From assembly GCF_030384885.1 (NCBI RefSeq), contig NZ_CP128613.1: a stretch of DNA of 64,000 nucleotides; one strand, written 5' to 3'. The notes beneath the pieces were generated by a model, which was not told where the DNA came from, made no database searches, and was given only the letters and a program-made list of their open reading frames with translations. The position numbers and the translations under genes are program-made. Shown piece after piece: positions 1-44,685 of this stretch. Numbering within the stretch: position 1 is the stretch's first letter; the number at the start of each line of letters is the position of its first letter. The DNA comes from Escherichia coli. Its GTDB lineage: Bacteria > Pseudomonadota > Gammaproteobacteria > Enterobacterales > Enterobacteriaceae.

Positions 1-93
1 GGCGCACCGGATGCTATCGCATCGGATGTTGCCCGCCTGCACGCACACTATTTGCAGCTTGCGTCGCAGTTTGTCTCACAGGAAAAACCGTAA
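1..93 (+). CDS. coaE: dephospho-CoA kinase, C-terminal fragment (gene starts upstream of window)
   Basis: Frame-1 translation ends ...[21 protein letters not shown] then TAA at 91-93, overlapping the zapD ATG (TAATG); synteny with zapD/yacG. Confidence 0.7.
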
Positions 94-836
94 TGCAGAC
101 CCAGGTCCTTTTTGAACATCCACTAAATGAAAAAATGCGTACATGGCTGCGCATTGAGTTTTTGATTCAGCAACTCACCGTTAATCTACCCGTCGTTGAC
201 TACGCTGGCGCTCTGCATTTCTTCCGCAATGTCAGTGAATTACTGGATGTTTTCGAGCGCGGCGAAGTCCGTACTGAGCTGTTGAAAGAACTTGACCGCC
301 AGCAGCGCAAACTCCAGACCTGGATTGGCGTGCCTGGCGTGGACCAGAGCCGTATTGAAGCATTAATTCAGCAGTTAAAAGCGGCGGGGAGCGTATTAAT
401 TTCCGCGCCGCGTATCGGGCAATTTCTGCGTGAAGATCGTTTGATTGCTCTGGTGCGTCAGCGACTGAGCATCCCAGGCGGCTGTTGTAGCTTTGATTTA
501 CCTACATTGCACATTTGGCTGCATCTACCCCAGGCGCAGCGTGACAGCCAGGTAGAAACCTGGATTGCCAGCCTGAACCCGCTCACCCAGGCACTTACCA
601 TGGTGCTGGATTTAATTCGCCAGTCGGCCCCCTTCCGTAAACAAACCAGCCTGAATGGTTTTTATCAGGATAACGGTGGCGATGCCGACTTGCTGCGCCT
701 GAATCTGTCGCTCGATTCACAGCTTTATCCGCAAATTTCCGGTCATAAGAGCCGTTTTGCCATTCGTTTTATGCCGCTGGACAGTGAAAACGGACAGGTA
801 CCGGAACGTCTGGATTTCGAACTGGCCTGTTGCTAA
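93..836 (+). CDS. zapD: cell division factor ZapD
   Basis: 247-aa ORF; sequence and position between coaE and yacG match the recalled E. coli protein. Confidence 0.9.
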
Positions 837-845
837 GGAGTAAAA

Positions 846-1040
846 ATGTCAGAAACTATTACGGTGAATTGCCCAACCTGCGGGAAAACGGTGGTATGGG
901 GTGAAATCAGCCCGTTTCGGCCATTTTGTTCCAAACGTTGTCAGCTGATCGACCTAGGAGAATGGGCTGCTGAAGAAAAGCGAATCCCCAGCAGTGGCGA
1001 TCTTTCCGAAAGCGATGACTGGAGCGAAGAGCAGAAGTAA
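846..1040 (+). CDS. yacG: DNA gyrase inhibitor YacG (zinc ribbon)
   Basis: 64-aa ORF with CPTCG...FCSKRC zinc-ribbon cysteines; follows zapD by 10 bp. Confidence 0.85.
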
Positions 1041-1074
1041 TTGGGTGTAAAAGGTGAGATGTTGTCGGATGCAG

Positions 1075-1195
1075 CGCGAATGCCTTATCCGACCTGCAAG
1101 ACCTTTTATATCAACGCATTAAAAAAATTGTAGGCCTGATAAGACGCGCCAGCGTCGCATCAGGCATCCAGTGTAAATGTCGGATGCCTTAACCG
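1075..1195. repeat. REP (repetitive extragenic palindromic) element cluster
   Basis: Imperfect palindromes of the gccggatg.../gcatccggc and taggcctgataagacgcgccagcgtcgcatcaggc type between convergent yacG and mutT. Confidence 0.6.
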
Positions 1196-1197
1196 AT

Positions 1198-1587
1198 CTA
1201 CAGACACTTAAGCTTCGCAATTACCGGTTCATTGGCTGGCGGAAAATCATCTGCATTGAGGCAGGCCTGCGAAATCCACTCACTGGGCTGCCCTTCTTTA
1301 CCCCACGGCTCCCCTTCCCAGCTTTCGACCAGCCAGAACCACAGTGTTATATGCCTGTCCGGGAATTCATATTCCAGTTTTTCAAATAGCGAATAATGTT
1401 GTGGGGTAATCCCGACTTCTTCCTGAAGTTCACGCACCACCGCCTGTTCCGGCGTTTCGCCCATTTCAATTTTACCGCCTGGAAACTCCAGTTTATTCGC
1501 CATGTGCGCATCTGCGGCGCGACGGGTTATAAAGATTTCATTGTTCTCGTTGCGAATAATACCTACCGCAATTTGCAGCTTTTTCAT
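1198..1587 (-). CDS. mutT: 8-oxo-dGTP diphosphatase (Nudix)
   Basis: 129-aa ORF with Nudix box GGKIEMGETPEQAVVRELQEEVGI; lies downstream of secA. Confidence 0.9.
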   Translation of the reverse strand: MKKLQIAVGIIRNENNEIFITRRAADAHMANKLEFPGGKIEMGETPEQAVVRELQEEVGITPQHYSLFEKLEYEFPDRHITLWFWLVESWEGEPWGKEGQPSEWISQACLNADDFPPANEPVIAKLKCL

Positions 1588-1645
1588 TGTCTTAAACCTA
1601 TAAAAAAGGCGCAGAATCCTGCGCCTTTTGTTTCAAGAGTTAGCT

Positions 1646-4351
1646 TTATTGCAGGCGACCGTGGCACTGCTTGTATTTTTTACCAGAACCGCACGGGCAA
1701 GGATCATTACGTCCAACTTTGCGTTCACCGGTTTGTGCCGCCAGTGCAGCTGCGGCTGCAGAGTCATCATCCTGATGGCTAAGCTGCTGCATTTGCGCTA
1801 AACGCTCGGCTTCCATACGACGCTGTTGTTCCAGCTCTTCAACCTCTTCAGGCATACGTACCTGGACTTTGCTCAGCGTGCTGATGACTTCATATTTCAG
1901 CGACTCCAGCATCGCTGCAAACATGGAGAACGATTCACGTTTGTATTCCTGCTTCGGATCTTTCTGTGCATAGCCACGCAGGTGGATACCTTGACGCAGA
2001 TAATCCATCGCTGCCAGGTGCTCTTTCCACAGGGAGTCAAGCGTTTGCAGCATGACGCCTTTCTCGAAGTGACGCATCATCTCAGCGCCAACCACTTCTT
2101 CTTTACGCTGATACACTTCGATGGACTGCGCCAGAATACGCTCACGCAGCGTCTCTTCATGCAGTTCTGGCTCTTTGTCCAGCCACTCGGCAATCGGCAA
2201 ATCGAGGTCGAAATCGTTCTTCAGACGTTCCTGCAGCCCCGGAATATCCCACATTTCTTCCAGCGACTGCGGCGGAATGTAGGCATCGATGGTCGCTTTG
2301 AACACATCTTCACGAATGCTGTTGATGGTATCGCTCACATCGCTGACATCCAGCAGTTCATTACGCTGGGAGTAAATAGCGCGACGCTGATCGTTAGCCA
2401 CGTCATCATATTCCAGCAGTTGCTTACGAATATCGAAGTTACGGCTTTCAACTTTACGCTGAGCGTTGGCAATCGCTTTGGTCACCCACGGGTGCTCGAT
2501 GGCTTCGCCTGGTTTCATACCCAGTTTACGCATCATGCCGGAAACACGGTCAGAAGCAAAAATACGCATCAGCGCATCTTCCATCGACAGGTAGAAACGG
2601 GAAGAACCGGCATCCCCCTGGCGCCCAGAACGACCGCGTAGCTGGTTATCGATACGACGAGATTCGTGACGTTCTGTACCGATGATATGCAGACCACCTG
2701 CAGCCAGTACCGCATCGTGACGCACCTGCCAGTCGGCTTTGATTTTTTCAATTTGCTCTGCGGTCGGATTTTCCAGCGCGGCAACTTCTGCCTGCCAGCT
2801 ACCACCGAGCACAATATCTGTACCACGACCCGCCATGTTAGTCGCGATAGTCACCGCCGCCGGATAACCCGCTTGTGCAACAATCGCTGCTTCGTTAGCG
2901 TGGAATTTGGCGTTCAGAACGTTGTGTTTGATACCGGCTTTGGTCAGCTCGTTTGACACCAATTCCGATTTTTCGATGGAGATAGTACCCACCAGCACTG
3001 GCTGGCCCTTCGCAGTACGCTCTTTGATATCTTCGATGATCGCCTGGATTTTTTCCGCTTCAGTCATATAGACCAGATCTGGCAGATCTTTACGAATCAT
3101 CGGACGGTTGGTTGGAACAACAACGGTATCCAGCTTGTAGATTGAGCTAAATTCGAAAGCTTCGGTATCAGCAGTACCGGTCATGCCCGCCAGTTTTTCA
3201 TACAAACGGAAGTAGTTCTGGAAGGTGATCGACGCCAGCGTCTGGTTTTCGTTCTGAATCTGTACACCTTCTTTCGCTTCCACTGCCTGATGCAGGCCAT
3301 CGGACCAGCGACGTCCCTGCATGGTACGACCGGTGTGTTCATCAACGATGATAACTTCACCATCTTTAACGATGTAGTCGACGTCACGGGTAAACAGTGC
3401 GTGAGCACGCAGCGCCGCGGTTACGTGGTGCATCAGCATAATATTAGCCGGAGAGTACAGCGACTCCCCTTCATCCATGATGCCTTCTTTCACCAGCAGC
3501 TCTTCGATCAGCACCAGACCACGTTCAGTCAAGTTCACCTGGCGAGATTTTTCATCCACCGAGAAGTGGCCTTCGCCCTGGAAGGTTTCGGAGTCTTCTT
3601 TTTCCTGACGAATCAGGTGCGGAATGATTTTGTTCACGCGTTTATACATTTCCGAGCTGTCTTCAGCCGGGCCGGAAATGATCAGCGGTGTACGCGCTTC
3701 ATCGATCAGGATGGAGTCCACTTCGTCCACCAGCGCATAGTGCAGTTTACGTTGTACACGTTCTTCAGGGCTGAATGCCATGTTATCGCGCAGGTAGTCA
3801 AAGCCGTATTCGTTGTTCGTACCGTAAGTGATGTCAGCTGCGTAAGCTTCACGCTTCGCCGGTGCTGGCATGCCCGGCAGGTTGATACCGACAGTCAGGC
3901 CAAGGAATTCAAACAGCGGACGGTTGTTTTCGGCGTCACGTTGCGCCAGGTAGTCGTTGACGGTAACAACGTGTACGCCCTTACCGGTTAATGCGTTCAG
4001 GTAAGCAGGCAGCGTTGCGGTCAGGGTTTTACCTTCACCGGTACGCATTTCCGCGATGCAGCGTTCGTTAAGAACCATACCGCCGAGTAACTGAACGTCG
4101 AAGTGACGCATACCAAAGACGCGCTTACTTGCCTCACGCACCACAGCGAAAGCTTCTGGGATCAGATTTTCCAGCACTTCGCCTTTTTCCAGACGTGCAC
4201 GAAACTCTGCGGTTTTCCCTTTCAGTTCTTCGTCGGAGAGTTTTTCCATCTCCGGTTCCATGGCATTGATGATGTTGACGACTTTGCGCATCCGGCGCAG
4301 GGTGCGATCGTTACGACTACCGAAAACTTTAGTTAATAATTTGATTAGCAT
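1646..4351 (-). CDS. secA: preprotein translocase ATPase SecA
   Basis: 901-aa ORF with Walker A GEGKT and C-terminal zinc-binding [14 protein letters not shown]. Confidence 0.95.
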
Positions 4352-4412
4352 AATAAAATCTCAAACGCCCCGTGTTGCGGAGTCAATAAAATGAAATAAA
4401 GGTTTATTGTTG

Positions 4413-5140
<728 letters not shown>

Positions 5141-5155
5141 ACAGTATAAATGTCG

Positions 5156-6094
<939 letters not shown>

Positions 6095-6173: not shown

Positions 6174-7325
6174 TTAATCAGCTTGCTTACGCAGGAATGC
6201 TGGGATATCCAGATAATCCGGCTCTTTCGCAGTTTGCGGTGCGTTGTCATTCACGACTTTAGCAACCGGTTTCTGCTCCTGAGTCAGCGGTGCCATCCCG
6301 TGCTGCTGGTAGCGATCCATCACTGGCTGCTGAACCTGCTTATTGGTCACCAGGGTGATTTCAGGACGTTTGTCCATACCGATACCTGTCGCAACAACAG
6401 TTACGCGCAGCTCGTCATTCATATCCGGGTCAAGAGAAGTACCGATAACCACAGTTGCGTTGTCGGATGCAAATGCACGGATGGTGTTACCTACCGTTTC
6501 GAACTCATCCAGACGCAGGTCGAAGCCCGCCGTGATGTTAACCAGCACGCCGCGCGCGCCAGACAGATCGATATCTTCCAGCAGCGGAGAGGAGATAGCC
6601 ATTTCAGCAGCTTCTTCCGCACGGTCTTCGCCGCTCGCCACACCAGAACCCATCATTGCGTAGCCCATTTCAGACATTACGGTACGTACGTCTGCAAAGT
6701 CCACGTTCATCAGGCCTGGACGAGTAATCAGTTCAGCGATACCTTGCACAGCACCTTTCAGTACATCGTTCGCTGCGCCAAATGCATCCAGCAGGGAAAT
6801 ACCGCGGCCCAAGACTTTCAGCAGTTTGTCGTTAGGGATAGTGATCAGAGAGTCCACATGCTTGGACAGTTCTGTGATCCCCTGCTCAGCGAATGCCATA
6901 CGCTTCTTGCCTTCAAAGTTGAAAGGCTTAGTCACGACAGCAACGGTCAGGATCCCCAAATCTTTTGCCACTTCAGCGACAACTGGTGCTGCACCAGTAC
7001 CGGTACCACCACCCATACCCGCAGCAATAAAGACCATGTCTGCACCTTCCAGCGCCGCACGCAGTGCATCGCGATCCTCATCAGCCGCATTACGGCCAAC
7101 TTCTGGATTTGCGCCAGCTCCCAGTCCTTTGGTGATACCGCTACCGATTTGAATCGTCTGTCCAACCGCTGTTTTACGCAGCGCTTGTGCATCGGTATTT
7201 ACCGCGAAGAATTCAACACCTTCAATGCGCTCGCGCACCATGTGTTCAACAGCATTACCGCCGCCGCCGCCGACGCCGATGACTTTAATCACCGCGTCAT
7301 TGGTAAGTTCCATTGGTTCAAACAT
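6174..7325 (-). CDS. ftsZ: cell division GTPase FtsZ
   Basis: 383-aa ORF with tubulin signature GGGTGTG and N-terminal [12 protein letters not shown]. Confidence 0.97.
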
Positions 7326-7385
7326 AGTTTCTCTCCGATTTGTGCCTGTCGCCTGAGGCCGTAATTATCGTCGGCCTCATAAAAA

Positions 7386-8648
7386 TTAAAACTCTTTTCG
7401 CAGCCAACTATTGAGTCGCTTGATCCACGAGCCAACTGATGCTGTAACACGTTTTTCTACTTCAGCTTCACCGTTAAGATGTGACTCTTTCCCATAGTGA
7501 AGCAATCCCACCGCCGTCGAATAATACGGCTCCTGAGCATAATCCGTTAAACCGGTAATGTTCAGCGGCGCGCCGATACGCACTTGCGTATGAAACACGC
7601 GCTGAGCACAGGCTGCAAGACCTTCGATCTGCGCTGCGCCACCAGTTAAAACAATGCCTGCCGCCAGGTGATGTTTAACCCCTTGTTGGCGAAGCTTTTC
7701 CTGCAACTGCAATATCTCTTCGTTGACCAGGTTGAGCAGCTCGGTATAGCGCGGCTCGATCACCTCTGCCAGGGTCTGACGTTGCAGACTCCGCGGTGGA
7801 CGACCGCCTACGCTAGGCACTTCCACGCTCTCATCTTTTCCAACGATGGAACCCAGCGCACAACCGTGGCGAACTTTAATCGCTTCGGCGTCGCTTGGCG
7901 GCGTGCCAAAGGCGTAAGCGATATCACTGGTCACGACATTGCCAGCATAAGGAATTACCTTAGTGTGGCGCAATGCCCCACCGGTATAAACGGCGATATC
8001 CATTGTACCACCACCGATATCGACGACGCAGACACCCAGTTCACGTTCATCTTCCGTCAATACCGAATAACTTGATGCCAGTCCGGCAAATATCAGTTGG
8101 TCAACTTTCAGCCCACAACGTTCAACCGCTTTGACGATGTTTTTCGCCATATCGTTGTGACATGTGATCAGGTGCACTTTTGCCTGCATCCGCACGCCCG
8201 AAAGTCCTACCGGATTCTTGATCCCTTCCTGATAGTCAATCGCATACTCTTGCGGGATCACATGCAGCACACGATGCTCATCGCGCACACGCACTGATTT
8301 CGCGGTATGGACGACGTTTTCCACATCTTCTTGCGTCACTTCTTCTTCAGAAATAGGCACCATACCAATTTCATTCTGGCAGCTGATGTGCTTACCAGAA
8401 AGCGCCAGATATACCGAAGAGATCTGACAATCTGCCATCAATTCTGCCTGGTCAATGGCGCGTTGTACGCACTTGACCACGGATTCGAGGTCGTTCACCC
8501 CGCCTTTATCCATACCACGCGACGGGCAGCTGCCCACGCCAATGATATTGACCATACCGTCGGGCAGAACTTCCCCTACTAAAGCGGCAACCTTCGCGGT
8601 ACCAATCTCCAGTCCTACTACCAGTTTTCTGTCCGTCGCCTTGATCAT
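7386..8648 (-). CDS. ftsA: cell division protein FtsA (actin-like ATPase)
   Basis: 420-aa ORF; dcw cluster synteny. Confidence 0.95.
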
Positions 8649-14227: not shown

Positions 14228-15543
14228 CAACCTAACTCCTTCGCCAGACGGGCAAACTCATTGCCTCGTTGTTCAAAGTTCTTGAATTGATCAAGGCTGG
14301 CACAGGCCGGGGAGAGCAGAACCATATCTCCTGGTTGAACACGCGGAGCCAGCAAGCGCATCGCCTGTTCCATGGTTTCGGTTTGTTCTGCCACTTCCGG
14401 GCGCAGTGCCGCCAGCTGTGCGCCGTCACGACCGAAACAATACAAACGTACGTTATCGCCATTCAGGTAACGTGCCAGCGGACTAAAGTCCGCCGATTTA
14501 CCATCGCCGCCCAGCAACAAATGCAGCGTGCCATCTACGTGCAGGCCATTGAGCGCCGCTTCCGTACTGCCGACATTGGTCGCTTTCGAGTCGTTAATCC
14601 AGCGCACACCGTTATGTTCCAGCACCACTTCAAAGCGATGCGGCAAACCAGTGAACGTAGTTAACGCTTTCAGGCTACTGGCGCGTGGCAAACCAGCTGC
14701 GTCTGCCAGCGCCAGTGCCGCCAGCGCATTGGTGTAGTTATGCTGACCGGAAAGTTTCATCTCTTTCACGTTCAACACTTTCTCGCCTTTCACCCGCAGC
14801 CAGGTTTCACCCTGCTGATGATTCAAGTGATAGTCGCCCATATTGATACCAAAGCTAACGCAGCGTTCATCCGCACCACGAATCGGCATTGTTAAGGCAT
14901 CATCAGCATTAACCACGCAAACTTTCGCATTTTCATAAATGCGCAGTTTTGCCGCACGATACTGCTGTAAACCAAATGGATAGCGATCCATATGATCTTC
15001 AGTCACGTTCAGAATGGTCGCTGCTACCGCCTGTAAGCTGGAGGTGGTTTCAAGCTGGAAGCTAGACAGCTCCAGCACGTACAGTTCGCACTCAGCATCC
15101 AACAGCATCAACGCGGGCAGGCCAATGTTGCCACCCACGCCAACGTTAACGCCCGCCGCTTTCGCCATTTCACCCACTAGCGTGGTGACCGTGCTTTTGC
15201 CGTTAGAACCGGTAATCGCCACAATCGGTGCTTGTGCTTCGCGACAGAACAGCTCGATATCGCCAACGATTTCGATTCCGGCATCAGCGGCAGCGCTTAA
15301 GGATGGATGCGCCAGTGCAATACCGGGACTGGCGACAATCAGATCGGCCGCCATCAGCCATTCATCATTCAGACCGCCCGTGTGGCGTTCTACGGCTTCG
15401 GGTAATTTATCCAGGCCAGGCGGTGTCATCCGCGTATCCATAACGCGCGGCGTCACACCGCGAGCGAGGAAAAAGTCCACGCAAGAAAGCCCGGTGAGGC
15501 CCAGGCCGATAATGACGACATTTTTACCCTGGTAATCAGCCAT
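14227..15543 (-). CDS. murD: UDP-N-acetylmuramoylalanine--D-glutamate ligase
   Basis: 438-aa ORF; synteny. Confidence 0.95.
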
Positions 15544-31763: not shown

Positions 31764-33780
<2,017 letters not shown>

Positions 33781-33811
33781 TTTGTACACCGTCCGGCACT
33801 CAATCGCCAAA

Positions 33812-34040
33812 AAGAAAAAAGCCAGCAGATAATCACTGCTGGCGTGGCGATTAACACCAATACTCAGTCACACATGATGTCCGCAAATCAGTAGTCAGAA
33901 TGACTCCCCTCCCACTGCATCAGCTCTTCAAGCATGGTTAATCGTTGTGGGACGCTTAACCAACGCAACCAGCACAACGTCGCTGTCGCGGTAAAATAGT
34001 GCTGATAAAACTGACGCATGGGGCACCTCCTTGCTTCATC
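33812..34040 (-). ncRNA. sgrS: SgrS small RNA (glucose-phosphate stress), dual-function
   Basis: 5' end reads GATGAAGCAAGGAGGTGCCCCATG on the minus strand; ptsG-pairing region GTGTGACTGAGTATTGGTGT; 3' hairpin ccagcagtgattatctgctgg plus T-run; divergent from sgrR. Confidence 0.8.
33888..34019 (-). CDS. sgrT: SgrT small protein encoded within SgrS
   Basis: 43-aa ORF MRQFYQHYFTATATLCWLRWLSVPQRLTMLEELMQWEGSHSDY inside the sgrS transcript. Confidence 0.7.
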   Translation of the reverse strand: MRQFYQHYFTATATLCWLRWLSVPQRLTMLEELMQWEGSHSDY

Positions 34041-38496: not shown

Positions 38497-39178
38497 TATC
38501 ACCTGGCTTTATCACCATTTGCCGATGCGTTTTAGCTTAACGGTGGAACCCGGCGAGCAGGTGGCGATCCTCGGGCCAAGCGGCGCGGGTAAAAGTACCC
38601 TGCTAAATTTGATCGCCGGTTTTCTGACGCCAGCCAGCGGTTCGCTGACTATCGATGGTATTGATCACACCACTACGCCGCCGTCACGCCGTCCGGTATC
38701 GATGCTGTTTCAGGAGAACAACCTGTTCAGTCACCTGACGGTCGCGCAGAACATCGGGCTGGGGCTTAATCCTGGATTGAAGCTGAACGCGGCGCAGCAG
38801 GAGAAAATGCATGCTATCGCCCGCCAGATGGGGATTGATAATTTAATGGCGCGATTACCGGGCGAGCTTTCTGGCGGTCAGCGACAGCGCGTGGCGTTAG
38901 CGCGTTGTATGGTGCGCGAACAGCCGATTTTATTGCTCGATGAACCGTTCTCTGCGCTCGATCCGGCGTTACGTCAGGAGATGCTGACGCTGGTGAGCAC
39001 GAGCTGCCAGCAGCAAAAAATGACGCTATTGATGGTGTCGCACAGTGTGGAAGATGCGGCCCGGATCGCCACACGCTCGGTGGTGGTCGCCGACGGGCGC
39101 ATCGCCTGGCAGGGTAAGACTGAAGAATTGTTGAGCGGTAAGGCGAGTGCTTCGGCAATATTGGGGATTACGGGTTAG
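38480..39178 (+). CDS. thiQ: thiamine ABC transporter ATP-binding protein
   Basis: Start [13 protein letters not shown] gives 232 aa; Walker [10 protein letters not shown] and signature LSGGQRQR. Confidence 0.9.
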
Positions 39179-39179
39179 T

Positions 39180-39288
<109 letters not shown>

Positions 39289-39290
39289 CC

Positions 39291-40055
39291 CTAAACCCCA
39301 ACCACTTTCCGCAAAATATCGATATATACCGGCATCAACGGGTGGCGAATTAACACCACCAGCGCCACCACGCCGATGGCAGAAATCAACGGTGTCAACC
39401 ACAACAAATGACCGCGCGACAAATAATGACTTAAACGATCAGTTACCTTGCCGCTGCGCCATAACCGCCAACACAGCCAGCCGCCAACCCACAAAAACAC
39501 CGCTGTTGCCAGCAGCAACCACTTAAATTCACCGCTCTGCATCCCGGCAGGAATATCGATCGCCGCACCCGCCAGAATCCCCGGCAGGAAGTAAAACGGA
39601 GGCCATAACAGGCAGCCGATAATATTTGGCGTAATAAATTTCGCCACCGGGAGATCCAACATTCCCGCCACCATTGGCACCAGCGGACGCGTCGGGCCGA
39701 CAAAACGACCGACCAGAATGGTAAACATGCTGTGTTGATGCAACGCATGTTCAGTTTTATCGAGTAATGCTTTGTTCTTCTTCAGAAACGACCAGCGATG
39801 CAACGGCTTTTTAAAACGCCAGCCCAGCCAGAAGGAGATCCAGTCGCCCATCAGGCAACCGACAATCCCTGCCAGCCAGGCGTGCCAGAAACTTAACTCG
39901 CCGCTGCCAATCAGCGCTCCCAGTCCTGCCATCAGCACCGTACCGGGCAGAATCAAACCGACCAGCGCCAGCGACTCCAGAAAGGCCACCAACATTACCG
40001 CCATCAATGAATACACGGTGGATTGGGTAATAAAGTGTTCCAGCAATGCTTGCAT
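39291..40055 (-). CDS. yabI: DedA-family inner membrane protein YabI
   Basis: 254-aa membrane ORF; position between araC and thiQ. Confidence 0.85.
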   Translation of the reverse strand: MQALLEHFITQSTVYSLMAVMLVAFLESLALVGLILPGTVLMAGLGALIGSGELSFWHAWLAGIVGCLMGDWISFWLGWRFKKPLHRWSFLKKNKALLDKTEHALHQHSMFTILVGRFVGPTRPLVPMVAGMLDLPVAKFITPNIIGCLLWPPFYFLPGILAGAAIDIPAGMQSGEFKWLLLATAVFLWVGGWLCWRLWRSGKVTDRLSHYLSRGHLLWLTPLISAIGVVALVVLIRHPLMPVYIDILRKVVGV

Positions 40056-44571: not shown

Positions 44572-44574
44572 GTA

Positions 44575-44682
44575 GCCGCATCAGGTATGTAACGCCTGAT
44601 GCGACGCTGACGCGTCTTATCTGGCCTACACGTTCCGATTTTGTAGGCCGGATAAGCAAAGCGCATCCGGCACGAAGGAGTC
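44575..44682. repeat. REP element cluster
   Basis: Palindromic units gccgcatcaggtatgtaacgcctgatgcgacgc and taggccggataagcaaagcgcatccggc between araA and araD. Confidence 0.6.
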
Positions 44683-44685
44683 AAC

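Follow-up and report, generated by a model that had tools for sequence, protein, structure and literature searches.

Three intergenic gaps of Escherichia coli contig NZ_CP128613.1, namely yacG-mutT, thiQ-yabI, and araA-araD, contain clusters of short palindromes, which raises the question of whether the clusters belong to one dispersed repeat family or consist of hairpins that arose separately at each locus. The initial annotation had called them REP clusters. We addressed the question in the 64,000-nt stretch that carries all three gaps (the window), with gene names and coordinates from the PGAP annotation of a matching record, that of strain 2013C-4282 (NZ_CP027579.1). Over the 64 kb, the two sequences differ by seven substitutions (window positions 14622, 27131, 29245, 34315, 38909, 41209, and 48971) and no indels, and none of the substitutions lies inside the repeats. 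By megablast, the first 6 kb (window positions 1-6000, cluster 1 included) is 100% identical to 2013C-4282 and 95-99% identical to most other E. coli, nearly all records falling in that range. The closer surroundings of two clusters are unusually divergent: around yacG-mutT (741-1497), 5395 of 5445 records are just 90-95% identical, as are 4785 of 5437 around thiQ-yabI (38879-39590). K-12 MG1655 is 95.5-98.4% identical to the window, and the window strain is not K-12. The K-12 RefSeq record (NC_000913.3) lists no repeat features for the region, and K-12 was compared by alignment. The three gaps and their flanking genes are:

1041-1197: gap between yacG (846-1040, + strand) and mutT (1198-1587, - strand), convergent
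39179-39290: gap between thiQ (end 39178, + strand) and yabI (start 39291, - strand), convergent
44572-44685: gap between araA (end 44571, + strand) and araD (start 44686, + strand), tandem, within araBAD

Two of the gaps are convergent, one is tandem, and none is divergent; the repeats are thus at extragenic 3' positions, with a single 3-nt exception, the CTAC of the last unit of cluster 1, which overlaps the mutT stop codon. Published REP positions are convergent in approximately 60% of cases, tandem in 40%, and divergent in 1% (preprint 10.64898/2026.03.23.713779), a split with which the location of the three gaps agrees. The clusters are composed as follows:

1063-1201: cluster 1, y unit, 31-nt linker, z2 unit, 11-nt linker, truncated y unit
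1063-1097, + strand: unit a, y-type, iREP on the + strand, tail CTGC instead of CTAC, stem GTCGGAT/ATCCGAC
1098-1128: long linker, 31 nt, A+T-rich, with an IHF-consensus match
1129-1165, - strand: unit b, z2-type, GTAG at 1130-1133 on the + strand, IS621 target at 1130-1140 (- strand)
1177-1201, + strand: unit c, y-type, 11-bp internal deletion relative to K-12, CTAC tail at 1198-1201
39186-39271: cluster 2, y unit, 13-nt linker, z2 unit
39186-39220, + strand: unit a, y-type iREP, CTAC at 39217-39220, 8 nt past the thiQ stop
39234-39271, - strand: unit b, z2-type, GTAG at 39235-39238 on the + strand, IS621 target at 39235-39245 (- strand)
44575-44673: cluster 3, arm fragment, z2 unit, 12-nt linker, short y-stem unit
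44575-44586, + strand: arm fragment, 12 nt, GCCGCATCAGG, beginning 4 nt past the araA stop, a weak HMM match
44594-44630, + strand: unit a, z2-type iREP, CTAC at 44626-44629
44643-44673, - strand: unit b, short, y-type stem CCGGAT/ATCCGG with a z1-length centre, GTAG at 44643-44646 on the + strand

These boundaries keep the three sites of the initial annotation but move their limits. Cluster 1 had been placed at 1075-1195, which cut off the first 12 nt of its first unit; the bounds of clusters 2 and 3 needed only slight correction. In total, the gaps hold six full units (three y-type and three z2-type), one truncated y unit, and one 12-nt arm fragment.

Comparison of the window with itself linked the three gaps to one another. 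Positions 1063-1095 match 39186-39218 directly (91%), 1129-1165 match 44594-44630 in inverted orientation (95% across 37 nt), 39234-39256 match 44608-44630, also inverted (91%), and TTTTGTAGGCCTGATAAG forms a three-copy family at 1126, 39231, and 44639. The earlier claim that the same palindromic families occur at all three sites is therefore borne out by cross-matches of 91-95%, and so is the claim that they are the only dispersed repeats in the window: the other self-matches have 63-86% identity over at most 37 nt and lie inside genes, apart from a tandem repeat in espY1. With two or fewer mismatches allowed, the REP tail motif CTTATCYGRCCTRC was seen nine times versus 1.56 expected (0 of 100 shuffles reached nine), and seven of the nine sites fall within the three gaps, 0.6% of the window by length. 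As queries independent of the window, we also ran the published y, z1, and z2 consensus sequences (Durrant et al. 2024, PMC11208160) against it by blastn-short. All matches with E<0.01 lie inside the three gaps, and identity to the consensus is 80-97% per unit, as expected of the REP family. An HMM built from the six full units and searched to E 100 recovered these units, the truncated unit (1178-1203), and the arm fragment (44574-44585); across the 64 kb it found no further REP copy, its hits elsewhere being chance-level fragments. An Rfam scan of the window returned no family covering the REPs.

The units also share the structural features of REPs. The GTAG/CTAC tetranucleotide is present in six of seven units (GTAG at 1130, 39235, and 44643; CTAC at 1198, 39217, and 44626), the exception being the CTGC variant at 1094. 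Each of the six full units forms a hairpin interrupted by an internal loop of 1-2 nt, the mismatch typical of REPs (-14.3 to -21.9 kcal/mol, z -3.0 to -5.7), and folds of the whole gaps gave z values of -3.3 to -5.4 on both strands. The stem of the y units in clusters 1 and 2 reads GTCGGAT/ATCCGAC versus GCCGGAT/ATCCGGC in the consensus; both sides of one base pair are changed, and pairing is kept. Orientation alternates within each cluster (+,-,+ in cluster 1; +,- in clusters 2 and 3), as it does in BIMEs, and the linkers measure 31 and 11 nt in cluster 1, 13 nt in cluster 2, and 12 nt in cluster 3. Each cluster contains a tail-to-tail CTAC-linker-GTAG pair, which is the BIME arrangement (PMC3333891).

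In cluster 1, unit a agrees with the y consensus at 28 of 35 positions (HMM 34.1 bits; RNA hairpin -15.2 kcal/mol, z -2.96). Unit b is a nearly perfect z2 unit, matching 36/36 at 1130-1165 (E 4e-16) and 36/37 by global alignment, and folds, with an internal mismatch of 2 nt, at -21.9 kcal/mol (z -5.3). Unit c scores 7.3 bits against the HMM and forms only a weak hairpin (-4.2 kcal/mol, z -1.3), short of the folding seen in the full units; it is degenerate and probably inactive. In the long linker, TATCAACGCATTA at 1109-1121 matches the IHF consensus WATCAANNNNTTR, which has four matches in the window versus 2.3 expected, an excess that is weak alone and not significant. K-12 keeps the core of the match (TATCAATGAGTTA) amid many differences in the remaining linker. 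An IHF site is common in the long linkers of BIMEs (PMC3333891), and we regard this linker as a weak candidate for one.

In cluster 2, unit a agrees with the y consensus at 32 of 35 positions by alignment and 30 of 32 by blastn-short (39189-39220), with a hairpin of -19.2 kcal/mol (z -4.3); unit b matches z2 at 35/37 (39235-39271; -21.8 kcal/mol, z -5.7). The flanks GCACTGTC (39182-39189), whose last four bases are the first four of unit a, and GACAGTGC (39223-39230) can extend the unit a hairpin, and GTTTTG follows; the extended stem is seen in the whole-gap fold. In cluster 3, unit a matches z2 at 34/36 (44594-44629, E 2e-11). Unit b aligns to y at 28/30 with a 5-nt gap or to z1 at 25/29 (HMM 25.6 bits; hairpin -14.3 kcal/mol, z -3.8), and it stops 12 nt short of the araD start codon, with the Shine-Dalgarno sequence GAAGGAG in between. 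The arm fragment GCCGCATCAGG can pair along its whole length with the 5' arm of the adjoining z2 unit, so that a competing hairpin is possible; the fold of 44574-44632 uses this pairing (-25.0 kcal/mol, z -3.9). The K-12 counterpart of the fragment is GCCGCATCCGG, with one mismatch in the pairing.

Outside the window, 5425 of 5426 complete E. coli genomes match a 91-nt cluster 2 query, with a median of 40 places each; the search counted at most 40 pieces per record, a limit reached in 5426 records, and the copy number is thus at least 40. Such a high, dispersed copy number is characteristic of the REP family, which in K-12 amounts to approximately 600 units in 355 annotated elements (PMC3333891; preprint 10.64898/2026.03.23.713779). 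Taken together, sequence, structure, copy number, and gene context agree with the initial annotation, and we conclude with high confidence that the three gaps are ordinary E. coli REP/BIME loci, with y and z2 units that are alternating imperfect palindromes of 30-38 nt. Nothing in the evidence contradicts the REP identification. Knowledge of REP/BIME elements dates from the 1980s, and these clusters are of that already-known kind.

Compared with the y/z1/z2 units described in E. coli BIMEs (Gilson, Bachellier, Hofnung; PMC3333891), nothing essential differs here: the mismatch hairpin, GTAG/CTAC, alternation, short linkers, 3' extragenic site, high copy number, and strain-variable unit number are all shared. 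Agreement with the consensus is 34-36 of 36-37 positions for the z2 units of the window and 28-32 of 35 for the y units of clusters 1 and 2; the second unit of cluster 3 departs from the established types in that its stem is y-type and its centre has the length of z1. Judged on composition, linker length (11-13 nt), and amplification rather than on the S/s/l/r linker motifs, clusters 2 and 3 are BIME-2 (y plus z2, short linker, tandem-amplifiable); cluster 3 is amplified twofold and threefold in other strains with an 85-bp period, whereas the window strain has a single pair per locus. Cluster 1 resembles BIME-1, or RIP/RIB (REP-IHF-REP), in its 31-nt A+T-rich linker with an IHF-consensus match flanked by inverted units. 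However, BIME-1 is defined as y plus z1 (PMC3333891), and cluster 1 does not belong to it because the partner unit is z2 (36/37), not z1, which it matches at just 28/30 through shared arms. Cluster 1 better fits the "atypical BIME" class of PMC3333891, a BIME-1/BIME-2 chimera.

Two further systems are comparable. REPINs of Pseudomonas fluorescens and their RAYTs (PMC3116915, PMC3337134) likewise consist of two inverted REPs with a short spacer and are presumed to be mobilised by RAYT/TnpAREP, and the cluster 3 pair can fold as one long hairpin, as REPINs can; however, the REP sequence family and the host are different, and amplification of E. coli BIMEs takes place in tandem, within one locus. 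REP325 (yjdM-yjdN), as described in preprint 10.64898/2026.03.23.713779, is a z2/y array between tandem operon genes, like that at araA-araD, with the same expected effect in favour of the upstream gene, but it has 12 units versus two at araA-araD.

We then compared the gaps between strains. The araA-araD gap differs in exact steps of 85 bp: with one z2-y pair it measures 114 bp (the window and strain 63-2), with two pairs 199 bp (F8111-1SC3), and with three pairs 284 bp (K-12). At yacG-mutT, many strains have a gap of 87-99 bp with two units, the window has 157 bp, and K-12 has 215 bp with four units, so that unit number across strains is 2, approximately 2.5-3, or 4; the allele of the window is rare (17 of 5445 records at least 95% identical over 741-1497). 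Cluster 2 is nearly constant in length (712-713 bp for a 712-bp query in most rows), with a few alleles 12-43 bp shorter. In 2013C-4081 and O157:H7 TR01, a G-rich palindromic insert of 54-82 bp that contains CCCCTCGCCCCTTTGGGGAGAGGGCCGGGGTGAGGGG follows a single araA-araD pair (2013C-4081, L005 301-468; O157:H7 TR01, L006 301-496); we take it to be BoxC-like. No BoxC motif and no ERIC primer sequence was found in the window. The comparison with K-12 thus confirmed the same REP loci but not the same content, K-12 having more palindromic units at two of the three: six versus two at araA-araD and four versus approximately 2.5 at yacG-mutT. The window strain therefore has fewer units at two loci, along with one internally deleted unit and one CTGC tail. 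Because the window strain is not K-12 and unit number differs at two of three loci, K-12 REP annotation can be neither transferred one to one nor copied here, and the annotation value of the present analysis lies in fixing unit boundaries and types. Variable copy number at a BIME locus has been published (PMC3333891), and the variation of these clusters between strains is that already described behaviour.

For the origin of the clusters we draw on the literature. They would be non-autonomous repeats whose single-stranded hairpins are recognised, cut, and recombined by a domesticated HUH/Y1 transposase, TnpAREP (RAYT), which would be encoded elsewhere in the genome; the window annotation contains no TnpAREP gene. 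Unit number at a locus would change through TnpAREP activity or through replication slippage or recombination between units. TnpAREP binds units with GTAG and a stem mismatch, cleaves at sites in the iREP and linker, and can assemble multiple REPs by strand transfer (PMC3333891). Its sequence requirements (GTAG, mismatch, and CT at cleavage sites) are present in the window clusters, which are thus putative substrates. The MG1655 araD-A BIME is cleaved and recombined by TnpAREP in vitro (PMC3333891), and the K-12 araD-A BIME is 95-100% identical to cluster 3. The discovery value here is accordingly small, the araA-araD BIME being a published biochemical substrate.

The following effects on the neighbouring genes are inferred from where the clusters lie and from what has been published on other REPs. 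All three occupy 3' regions that are transcribed, and the RNA hairpins would block 3'->5' exonucleases and partly halt transcription; in this way they would protect the upstream message (yacG, mutT, thiBPQ, yabI, and araBA) and lower read-through into araD or the converging gene. The araA-araD pair should favour araBA over araD, and the two convergent clusters should act as shared 3'-end structures. Preprint 10.64898/2026.03.23.713779 ascribes two roles to REP325, stabilising the upstream message and terminating transcription in part, with partial dependence on Rho. It also reports that, genome-wide, upstream-biased expression accompanies REPs in tandem gaps and that both genes are more highly expressed where the gap with the REP is convergent. 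At the DNA level, the units would be expected to serve as the gyrase, Pol I, and (via the long linker) IHF sites documented for REPs, and as IS621 and IS1397 targets.

A contrary reading, which concerns function only, is that the units are inert: selfish repeats that have decayed in gaps tolerant of them and leave the neighbouring genes of this strain unaffected. Decay is visible in the unit truncated by 11 bp, in the 12-nt fragment, and in the tail mutated from CTAC to CTGC, and unit number at two loci varies freely across strains with no obvious cost; moreover, the preprint (10.64898/2026.03.23.713779) reports large variance among REP loci and no general effect on mRNA half-life. Yet six units have intact stems, the GTCGGAT/ATCCGAC variant is compensated and still paired, the length of cluster 2 is nearly unchanged in almost all genomes sampled, and the same preprint reports that at least some REPs have measurable terminator or stabiliser effects. 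We therefore consider inertness unlikely, though it deserves some weight, and retain the expectation that the hairpins would act on the adjoining messages.

Whether the strain-specific alleles have small, undescribed regulatory or coding consequences, in the araA:araD ratio or at the MutT and YacG C-termini, is a separate matter, and we regard this as a tentative possibility. If such consequences exist, the single araA-araD unit and the point change that yields the -25 kcal/mol hairpin could shift the araA:araD ratio relative to three-unit K-12, and the gain, loss, or decay of REPs would alter C-termini (MutT 129 versus 132 aa; YacG 64 versus 65 aa). The mutT stop codon (TAG, - strand, 1198-1200) is supplied by the CTAC/GTAG of cluster 1 unit c, and the MutT C-terminus would therefore change with the REP state: in SCU-482 and UPEC_U013, which do not have that tetranucleotide, mutT is annotated as 399 nt versus 390 nt, that is, 9 nt longer. 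The last codons and the length of yacG also differ (195 nt here versus 198 nt in K-12) beside the site at which strains either have or lack a z2 unit. Among the papers searched, none dealt with REPs near stop codons and tmRNA.

Much less probable is the idea that each hairpin is a Rho-independent terminator specific to its locus and formed in situ, the likeness among them reflecting G+C-rich palindromy. All three clusters lie at gene 3' ends, and a scan for canonical intrinsic terminators found none in the three gaps, so that the REPs are the sole strong hairpins at these 3' ends; in addition, the y unit after thiQ sits within a longer stem followed by GTTTTG. However, identity between loci reaches 91-95% over 33-37 nt, loops and mismatches included, which goes beyond structural need; the cluster 2 sequence recurs at least 40 times per genome; the units are not followed by T-runs; and exact 85-bp tandem copies vary between strains. 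The cross-locus identity, the copy number, and the consensus matches rule out a local-terminator origin. A REP unit may still play such a part, and that after thiQ, with its extended stem and GTTTTG, may be a weak intrinsic terminator.

The REP units are also targets of insertion sequences in other strains. The native IS621 target is ATCAGGCCTAC (PMC11208160), and this target occurs exactly at 1130-1140 and 39235-39245 (- strand) in the window. At yacG-mutT, 2014C-3050 carries an IS621 inserted at GTAG^ of a z2 unit, and UPEC_U013 an IS1397 in the loop of one, with GCCA on both flanks. Both elements are documented REP-specific inserters (PMC1525189), and the sites agree with the published specificities (PMC1525189, PMC11208160). 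The gaps are therefore natural hot spots for IS621/IS1397 insertion and length polymorphism, which is relevant to typing, assembly, and primer design. It is very improbable that the gaps instead once carried a classical IS or MITE of which the units are the scars or terminal inverted repeats. Inverted pairs 11-30 nt apart could resemble the ends of a miniature element, and in other strains IS elements do lie within the orthologous yacG-mutT cluster. However, neither in the three gaps nor adjoining them is there a transposase gene or fragment, the units match the REP consensus and not any IS end, and the IS621 and IS1397 junction sequences, in which the REP is the interrupted target and its halves flank the IS, led us to reject this reading.

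The initial annotation had further stated that no IS or transposon sequences accompany the repeats, which is correct beside the clusters but not for the window as a whole. A relic of an IS4/Tn5-family transposase is found 7 kb away from the nearest REP, flanked by rluA and espY1, a T3SS effector gene, at the position occupied by yabP/yabQ in K-12; it is single-copy and is present in 2776 of 5426 E. coli genomes. Its identity rests on the PGAP annotation of this and other genomes, and all of its frames contain stop codons. The neighbouring espY1 holds the tandem repeat noted above, three copies of a 15-nt unit, GGTAGCACCGTCCAG, encoding DGAT(L/V)DGAT. Two other differences from K-12 were observed. 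The sugar exporter gene setA (approximately 1.26 kb in K-12, between sgrS/sgrT and leuD) is absent here (site 33775-33814), leaving a leuD-sgrT gap of 107 bp, and apaH-folA contains an insert of approximately 790 bp. These features and two small RNA matches are located as follows:

1602-1670, - strand: STnc40, mutT-secA gap (Rfam 77.6 bits, above the gathering score)
7317-7406, - strand: PssrA ("plasmid-encoded Shigella sRNA A"), ftsA-ftsZ junction (Rfam 106.9 bits, above the gathering score)
51759-51937, + strand: frameshifted N-terminal fragment of an IS4/Tn5-family transposase pseudogene ("transposase DNA-binding-containing protein")
51954-52700, - strand: espY1, with the tandem repeat at 52082-52134
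60779-61569: apaH-folA insert relative to K-12
60797-60868: ccdB toxin gene fragment, in the apaH-folA insert
60914-61528: gene for a "plasmid pRiA4b ORF-3 family protein", in the apaH-folA insert

Besides PssrA and STnc40, the Rfam matches in the window were SgrS, Leu_leader, and the TPP riboswitch, each at its expected place.
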